Assembly (NCBI GenBank): GCA_964016885.1 | Contig: OZ024742.1 | Span: 143,902,001-143,966,000 of the forward strand | Length of the DNA: 64,000 nt | Direction: 5' to 3' | Source: Eledone cirrhosa | Taxonomy: Eukaryota | Shown: in pieces, positions 13,731-13,916 of the stretch | Layout: every line of letters begins with the position of its first letter | Numbering within the stretch: position 1 is the first letter of the stretch | Position numbers and translations under genes: made by a program | The notes under the pieces: generated by a model | Seen by the model: only the letters and a program-made list of their open reading frames with translations | What the model was told of the DNA's origin: nothing | The model's database searches: none

Positions 13731-13916
13731 GGAACCAGTAAGACCCCGACGGCTGAGCTCAAGCCGTTTCGACAACTAATTCTGGGGATTAGCTGAGAAT
13801 TAGCTGTCGAAACGGCTTGAGCTCAGCCGTCGGGGTCTTACTGGTTCCTATTACCCACTCTACTACCCCAAGTATTGAGTACTTTGGTGCGTTATGGTCC
13901 ACCTGGTTCCTTCGTT
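13731..13916 (+). mobile_element. Family P1 copy 2
   Basis: Inverted repeat 13731-13848 followed by the P1 body; (TA)n on both sides. Confidence 0.9.

Follow-up and report, generated by a model that had tools for sequence, protein, structure and literature searches.

Results

The window (the whole stretch of 64,000 nucleotides of Eledone cirrhosa DNA analysed here) carries at 13730..13916 a lopsided DNA hairpin, which is the shortest insertion type, or stub, of a Hydra-clade Penelope-like retrotransposon (Penelope-like element, PLE). In the element numbering used throughout, +1 is the G of GAAAC, and the cleavage site of the hammerhead ribozyme described below follows +23. The short arm of the hairpin (13730..13785, reverse strand) comprises positions -15 to +41, matches parent copies of the element and ends at a first internal start site of the reverse transcriptase (RT), GGTTCCT^AT. 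The long arm (13796..13916, forward strand) spans -13 to +121, is shortened by a 13-nt deletion within its tail and ends at a second internal start site, CTTCGTT^AT. This tail, which extends between the two start sites (13850..13916; 80 nt in the parent), is present on one side only, and through it the right arm continues to 13916. The arms are separated by a 10-nt filler (13786..13795), which is in part a local copy of the long-arm start and which we infer to be a repair-type insertion, and the whole is embedded in a (TA)n target with left and right flanks at 13695..13729 and 13917..14190.

Both arms hold GAAACGGCTTGAGCTCAGCCGTC, directly followed by GGGGTC (13748-13770 on the reverse and 13809-13831 on the forward strand), and with it the 3' half of a type I hammerhead. 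In the long arm, this half spans 13809..13836 and consists of the GAAA box, a helix III with the palindromic TGAGCTCA, the GUC cleavage triplet (13829-13831) and the helix I 3' strand GGGGT. The 5' core box and the helix I 5' strand are absent from the hairpin, which leaves a half-motif only, as an earlier reading of the letters alone (hereafter the original prediction) had recognized. With up to three mismatches, GAAACGGCTTGAGCTCAGCCGTC matches 12 times in the window and not once in 100 shuffles; the window contains six such hairpins, and none are expected by chance. The hairpin at 13728-13851 has a folding energy of -112.9 kcal/mol (z = -20).

The existence of a parent with the complete ribozyme had also been anticipated, and we found the 5' half of the hammerhead in 5,217 copies. 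Non-hairpin copies extend upstream with ACCCC-TTGA(G/T/A)AAG-N-TCGGCTA, a loop of about 33 nt and TAGCCGTC. The parent combines the features of a type I hammerhead, namely three helices around a core, G10.1-C11.1, GAAA and a UH site, and is probably such a ribozyme with a predicted cut at GUC. Its core is U3-A8 (UUGANAA) and not the CUGANGA of the original prediction: G8 occurs in 41 and C3-G8 in just 6 of the 5,217 copies with the 5' half, and the 3-8 pair among 100 listed copies is U-A in 75, C-A in 23 and U-G in 2 (hand count). Members of the C3-A8 subfamily include loci L062, L075 and L090. A search for CUGANGA misses the parent because of this U3-A8 core; the proposed search for CTGANGA upstream of the motif gave 23 matches in the genome, which look like chance junctions and include no parent, and treating the lack of a CUGANGA parent as refutation would have wrongly discarded the correct half-hammerhead idea. 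The minimum free energy (MFE) structure of one parent copy is a three-way junction, and 92% of 397 cells pair (19 copies, four subfamily groups). Three helix II pairs differ on both sides between family A and the older, diverged family B.

The tandem unit of the parent element is 3,531 bp long, and its 710-aa frame (P0001) contains, by eye, the RT motif YRDDG and a VIY..YIG signature, i.e., one open reading frame (ORF) encoding an RT followed by a C-terminal GIY-YIG-like endonuclease. RLRWR and SDKTG in P0001 correspond to the RWK-type (here RWR) and DKT motifs of the Hydra clade, CNCPDRSIC in the linker to CxCx5C, and CNLC and CKH in the endonuclease to CxxC and CxH. The protein resembles, by eye, the published part of the Hydra-clade alignment that we consulted (PMC8557442). 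Searches of Pfam, NCBIfam and PDB sequences with the parent ORF gave no match, while one homologue carries PF00078. Altogether 63 near-intact ORF copies were scored, and the ribozyme is located downstream of the ORF. The layout is likewise that of the Hydra clade, with a (TA)n target, tandem and inverted copies and a one-sided tail. Two descriptive traits of the clade are not found, a C3-G8 hammerhead (6/5,217 copies) and a length generally below 3 kb, neither of which is a clade-defining protein feature. We regard the element as a probable new member of the Hydra clade. All seven arrays examined consist of two head-to-head arms that end at GGTTCCT^AT (short) and CTTCGTT^AT (long); one short and one long end are clear in six of them, and the seventh, A13, can also be read as short plus long. 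Both start sites are internal to the 3,531-bp unit, 80 nt apart, and give fixed 3' ends, and the tandem units within the arrays are seamless.

Single arrays showed further peculiarities. At the arm junction of the L263-L264 array (C1:91489170-91492740), a 55-nt ORF piece is repeated about 65 times, either by reiterative copying or by later expansion. L331 (C2:356029300-356032800) is a miniature, retrozyme-like derivative: it repeats a 299-bp unit seven times with near identity, and every unit begins at -19 and comprises the ribozyme 3' half, the tail, the start of the ORF and a ribozyme 5' half in which loop II is shortened. In L238, look-alike sequences stand just 3' of +41 and +121 (ACTC..TAC..GTA..GAGT and GCTC..TAC..GTA..GAGC); in MFE folds the sequence after +121 forms a hairpin, and that after +41 folds otherwise.

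The 3.0-Gb genome contains 27,336 exact copies of the motif, not counting the youngest subfamily, which this pattern fails to match owing to a single change. Tail motifs number 27,821, and hairpins whose spacer does not exceed 30 nt number 7,833. Independent short-read contigs carry the same repeat and other fold-back joints, so the hairpin is not an assembly artefact, and no listed contig spans the whole window copy. Arm ends were determined for the first 100 of the 27,821 tail matches, of which 99 were analysed (L210 was left out); a few arms were mis-parsed at (TA)n runs (e.g., L124 and L203), all of them far 3' of the position at which arms pile up. Read-through copies, which run from the tail into the ORF, were examined for 70 of 227 cases.

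Stub arms stop at a wall in loop II. Of 99 arms, 45 reach -16, and 37 of these end at -16 to -24; of the eight that pass, a single one ends within the next 56 nt (Fisher p = 3e-4). The wall lies at TCATTTAGT or TCATTCAGT, both of them initiator-like words. Family B keeps TTAGT/TCAGT at the same place though the rest of its loop II has diverged, and family B stubs end there too. In a set of 72 short hairpins, 28 have the tailed arm and 29 the tail-less arm as the one extending further, with 15 ties, and the arms meet through overlaps of 0-7 nt or short fillers (gaps of -7 to +24).

An additional G frequently precedes arms that end at the wall. In the youngest subfamily, whose parent has T at -19, the base before AGTCC is G in 40, T in 41, C in 19 and A in none of the 100 listed of 2,224 matches. 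A hand count of these 100 gave 23 G arms in 17 hairpins in which the other arm could not have supplied the base, versus no such A, and attributed every C before AGTCC to the other arm or to a local duplication. In the retrieved loci, G precedes 7 of the 9 arms that start at -18 versus 10 of 34 arms elsewhere (p = 0.018), where a subfamily without a parent sequence for comparison contributes three of the seven; loci L031-L053 were excluded from the G count, as their search pattern favours G. In L275, L299, L313, L137 and L187, short A runs stand before the extra G at jump junctions, and long T/A runs occur at some wall junctions; these runs possibly reflect acceptor RNAs with an oligo(A) tail and slippage of the RT where the RNA ends.

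The read-through copies meet the wall in two ways. In 16 of the 70 loci, sequence from the start of the ORF, which breaks off at 43-820 or, in L331, near -38, is fused directly to positions -12..-21, with an extra G in front at six of the 16 junctions. In these loci, the RT ran to the end of one RNA and switched to a second RNA of the element at its 3' end. Where an arm contains 1.2 kb of ORF or more and extends as far as the wall, on the other hand, it passes it in 35 of 35 cases, versus 2 of 13 arms with short ORF pieces (22 other arms ended earlier or were unresolved). Six insertions have a tail arm beyond the wall and a partner arm that could be located, and in all six the partner passes as well; for L130, no partner arm was found within 6 kb. 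A purine at the cap position had no match among the read-through copies.

Four sister stubs of the hairpin are present in the window, at 1782..1972 (tail left; long arm ending at G+AGTAC, -18, with ends computed from motif positions), 18204..18380 (tail right), 23802..23993 (tail left) and 43226..43402 (tail right; youngest subfamily), and a family B stub of the same layout lies at 24024..24212. Beside the hairpin studied here, 13690-13716 contains the 9-nt remnant of a short end (TCGTTCCT, followed by (AT)n), and the (TA)n run at 14030-14165 is broken repeatedly by GGTT/AACC. CTGANGA...GAAAC motifs of other families occur at 22650-22675 (forward), 26062-26091 (reverse) and 41698-41721 (forward), the last inside its own hairpin adjoining (TA)n; all three are likely canonical hammerheads of unrelated PLEs. 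Unrelated fold-back repeats, mostly beside (TA)n, were noted at 191-291, 17553-17689, 26710-26837 and 27580-27645.

Discussion

We propose that the window hairpin is a stub of a Hydra-clade PLE whose two arms are separate complementary DNAs (cDNAs), copied from the two ends of a cut target and run off a capped RNA that starts in loop II. We assign this reading a probability of about 0.7. The RNA very probably starts and is capped inside loop II, with a predicted transcription start at the initiator-like TTA(+1)GT (-18) and another at TCA(+1)TT (-22), so that its 5' end would carry half a ribozyme and could not cut itself there. The (TA)n target would be cut, and both of its ends would probably prime on one such RNA, each at one of the two internal sites; the two cDNAs would run off the capped 5' end, be trimmed and join through short homologies. 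For the lack of whole-unit arms from capped RNA we see an even chance that the complete ribozyme at the far unit end cuts off the start sites downstream of it, leaving the capped RNA to yield stubs only, and that long seamless copies come from uncapped templates, either ribozyme-cut circles or long read-through RNA. Tentatively, then, one short sequence might act as promoter, ribozyme and template switch, with the mRNA giving rise to stubs, and the freed, uncapped and circularized RNA serving as template for full-length tandem copies.

The expectation that the template RNA was uncleaved at GUC is supported, and the model explains it by the half-ribozyme at the 5' end of the RNA. For the same hairpin, the view that a mirror copy had overwritten the 5' half is probably wrong, as this half was likely never in the template. 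Cleavage in trans is probably also wrong: an RNA that spans the palindrome is locked in a hairpin of -113 kcal/mol, and the arm ends form no clear pile-up at the cleavage site. The inverted pair cggctaatt/aattagccg, quoted as the fold-back point, does occur in other copies, while the window copy reads caactaatt/aattagctg, and the pair is merely the mirror itself.

Several observations weigh against our proposal. The extra G is the trace to be expected of a copied 5' cap, for which we found no source in the literature searched. There is no spike of arm starts at the cleavage site, as about 14 fit +24 and about 15 fit +21 (100 listed of 267; hand count). Regarding the ribozyme, two of four parent copies fold otherwise, folding z-scores for the parent range from only -0.6 to -1.4, and the covariation derives from a single split, that of families A and B. 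The Rfam search suggested in the original prediction found no hammerhead among 34 rows (up to E 10) for a parent copy, nor among 150 listed of 214 rows for the window. The C3-A8 subfamily, which makes up 23 of 100 listed copies with the 5' half (hand count), multiplied despite a broken core pair, and ribozyme mutants of the Poseidon PLE insert normally in vitro according to the part of the report considered (PMC11167929); together, these findings argue against a need for cleavage. L319 passes a complete ribozyme, yet ends at -17, and a wall-limited arm is paired with a long arm in L123, L191, L319 and array A51. Finally, all counts come from one genome, the loci are first listed matches, mostly from contig C1 and thus non-random, and the 35 long arms are partly non-independent (L284-287 form one array and L301-302 another).

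The wall-limited arms paired with long ones (here L123, L191 and A51) would also suit a retrovirus-like transfer from the same capped start, in which the run-off cDNA re-anneals to a repeat (-18 to +23 or further) at the RNA 3' end to give long copies, and stubs are failed transfers. The seamless tandem units and the 16 of 70 loci in which RT, coming from other sequence of the element, restarts at the wall are in line with such a process. A cDNA of a whole unit should, however, often stop on meeting the cap again, which none of 35 does; neither A nor G stands at the cap position in any read-through copy, and an end-to-end duplication of the repeat is absent from 430 partly overlapping sequences, which makes this explanation unlikely. 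The original prediction had instead let helix II stall the RT, with the cDNA snapping back and its mirror copy replacing the 5' half. Its placement of the junctions in the helix II/loop II region was correct, the arms nearly always share subfamily variants (by eye), and snap-backs have been reported for R2 insertions (PMC11371274, as far as consulted). The arms, though, read through the helix II 3' strand and stop 16-24 nt in, within the loop and with an extra G, neither at the helix base nor at the 5' strand (-50s; 1/99), and a stall predicts neither this G nor its absence from long arms. In addition, lengths of 124-282 nt for one arm go together with 10-12.6 kb for its partner, and of the 57 hairpins without a tie, 29 have the longer arm on the tail-less side, where a copy of the tailed strand would need a later deletion. 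This arm symmetry (28 versus 29) therefore fits priming from both DNA ends and not a helix-II snap-back, which it largely refutes; we hold the latter to be very improbable.

The wall could mark some other RNA end, either a 3' splice site (TTTTCATTTAG^) or the cut of a nuclease, or it could be a pause at a bound protein; the G would then be untemplated. A pyrimidine run followed by YAG in the loop would agree with this, as would the intron end within the Penelope hammerhead of Drosophila virilis described in the sections consulted of PMC4209133. A splice site is unlikely because the arms include the AG and often also the TTT in front of it, and no shared upstream exon appears; G is, moreover, unenriched at other end positions (10/34). 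We give this group of explanations equally little credence. Self-priming on an antisense template, proposed for the palindromic junctions of rotifer Penelopes (Arkhipova 2013, PMC3846280, in the part available), would make a head-to-head repeat directly, and some junctions here are indeed perfect palindromes. Poseidon, according to the portion used of PMC11167929, takes a sense RNA template in vitro. Most of our junctions lack symmetry and show microhomology or filler (gaps of -7 to +24), and the extra G stands where a sense-strand cap predicts it, so that antisense self-priming appears hardly conceivable here.

Retroviral strong-stop cDNA arises when RT runs off the RNA 5' end, from where it may proceed onto a second RNA at its 3' end. 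R2 template jumping resembles our system in the same respect, since RT that has run off a 5' end is able to go on copying from the 3' end of a different RNA (PMC11371274, sections consulted). Unlike both, the element described here is target-primed from internal sites and on both DNA strands, and its failed products integrate as hairpins. The closest relatives are Hydra-clade PLEs such as Hydra-1_Obim and Hydra-2_Amil (Craig et al. 2021, PMC8557442), which, as far as the consulted text describes them, share one ORF that encodes RT and, at its C-terminus, a GIY-YIG-like domain, the motifs RW(K/R), DKT, CxCx5C, CxxC and CxH, as well as the (TA)n target, partial tandems, an inverted 5'-truncated copy and a one-sided tail. 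They differ in length (generally <3 kb versus a unit of 3.53 kb here) and tail (30-40 versus 80 nt). Hydra-1_Obim, for which the same source lists a canonical CUGANGA, differs from the U3-A8 core and the loop II of about 33 nt, likely holding the start site, found here, and is a separate family (comparison by eye). In the available part of Frangieh et al. 2024 (PMC11167929), Poseidon PAc of Anolis likewise has two internal RT start sites that bound a tail downstream of a hammerhead, an AT-rich target and uncleaved RNA as template, and in vitro both strands are cut and extended from two internal starts. PAc belongs to another clade, and a start site in the ribozyme, a cap-derived G, stub hairpins and jumps at the cap are unmapped in that part of the report.

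The ribozyme resembles the PLE minimal hammerheads and their U3-A8 variant in Schistosoma Cercyon: it has a type I fold with the U3-A8 swap, its helix II is long, G10.1-C11.1 is present, helix III holds a palindrome, and it occurs in pairs on opposite strands (Cervera and de la Pena 2014, PMC4209133, in the portion consulted). In contrast to the minimal hammerheads described there, it has a stable 5-bp helix III and a long loop II, and most of its genomic copies are half-ribozymes that end at one position. A circular template has been proposed for tandem PLE copies in the same text. The inverted pseudo-long terminal repeats (pLTRs) of Adineta Penelopes share head-to-head repeats, a tail on one arm and an initiator-like motif in the pLTR (Arkhipova et al. 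2013, PMC3846280, as consulted). Unlike the antisense self-priming put forward for these pLTRs, our junction statistics favour two sense-templated cDNAs that end at a capped end. In the largely open-access literature searched, we found no earlier description of an RNA start within the hammerhead of a PLE, of strong-stop-like products, cap traces or jumps at the cap, or of a template split between stubs and long copies.

Conclusions

The role of PLE hammerheads, the nature of the template RNA and the origin of head-to-head repeats are stated as open questions in the consulted parts of PMC8557442, PMC3846280 and PMC4209133. If our proposal is true, the genome records capped templates, through wall, extra G and jumps, alongside uncapped ones, through the 35 of 35 long arms that pass, and it would provide indirect in vivo evidence for a role of the PLE hammerhead and for the way in which head-to-head repeats form. 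An RNA start inside the ribozyme would account for the defective state of most copies, and the C3-A8 subfamily offers a natural test of whether cleavage matters. The family is young, has ORFs that are intact, and numbers its stubs in the tens of thousands; it yields predictions at base level, namely capping at a start of -18/-22, cleavage after +23, a circle of 3,531 nt and priming from both strands. Searches for CUGANGA miss whole families of such elements. The proposed stub mechanism would account for thousands of near-perfect DNA palindromes in one genome.
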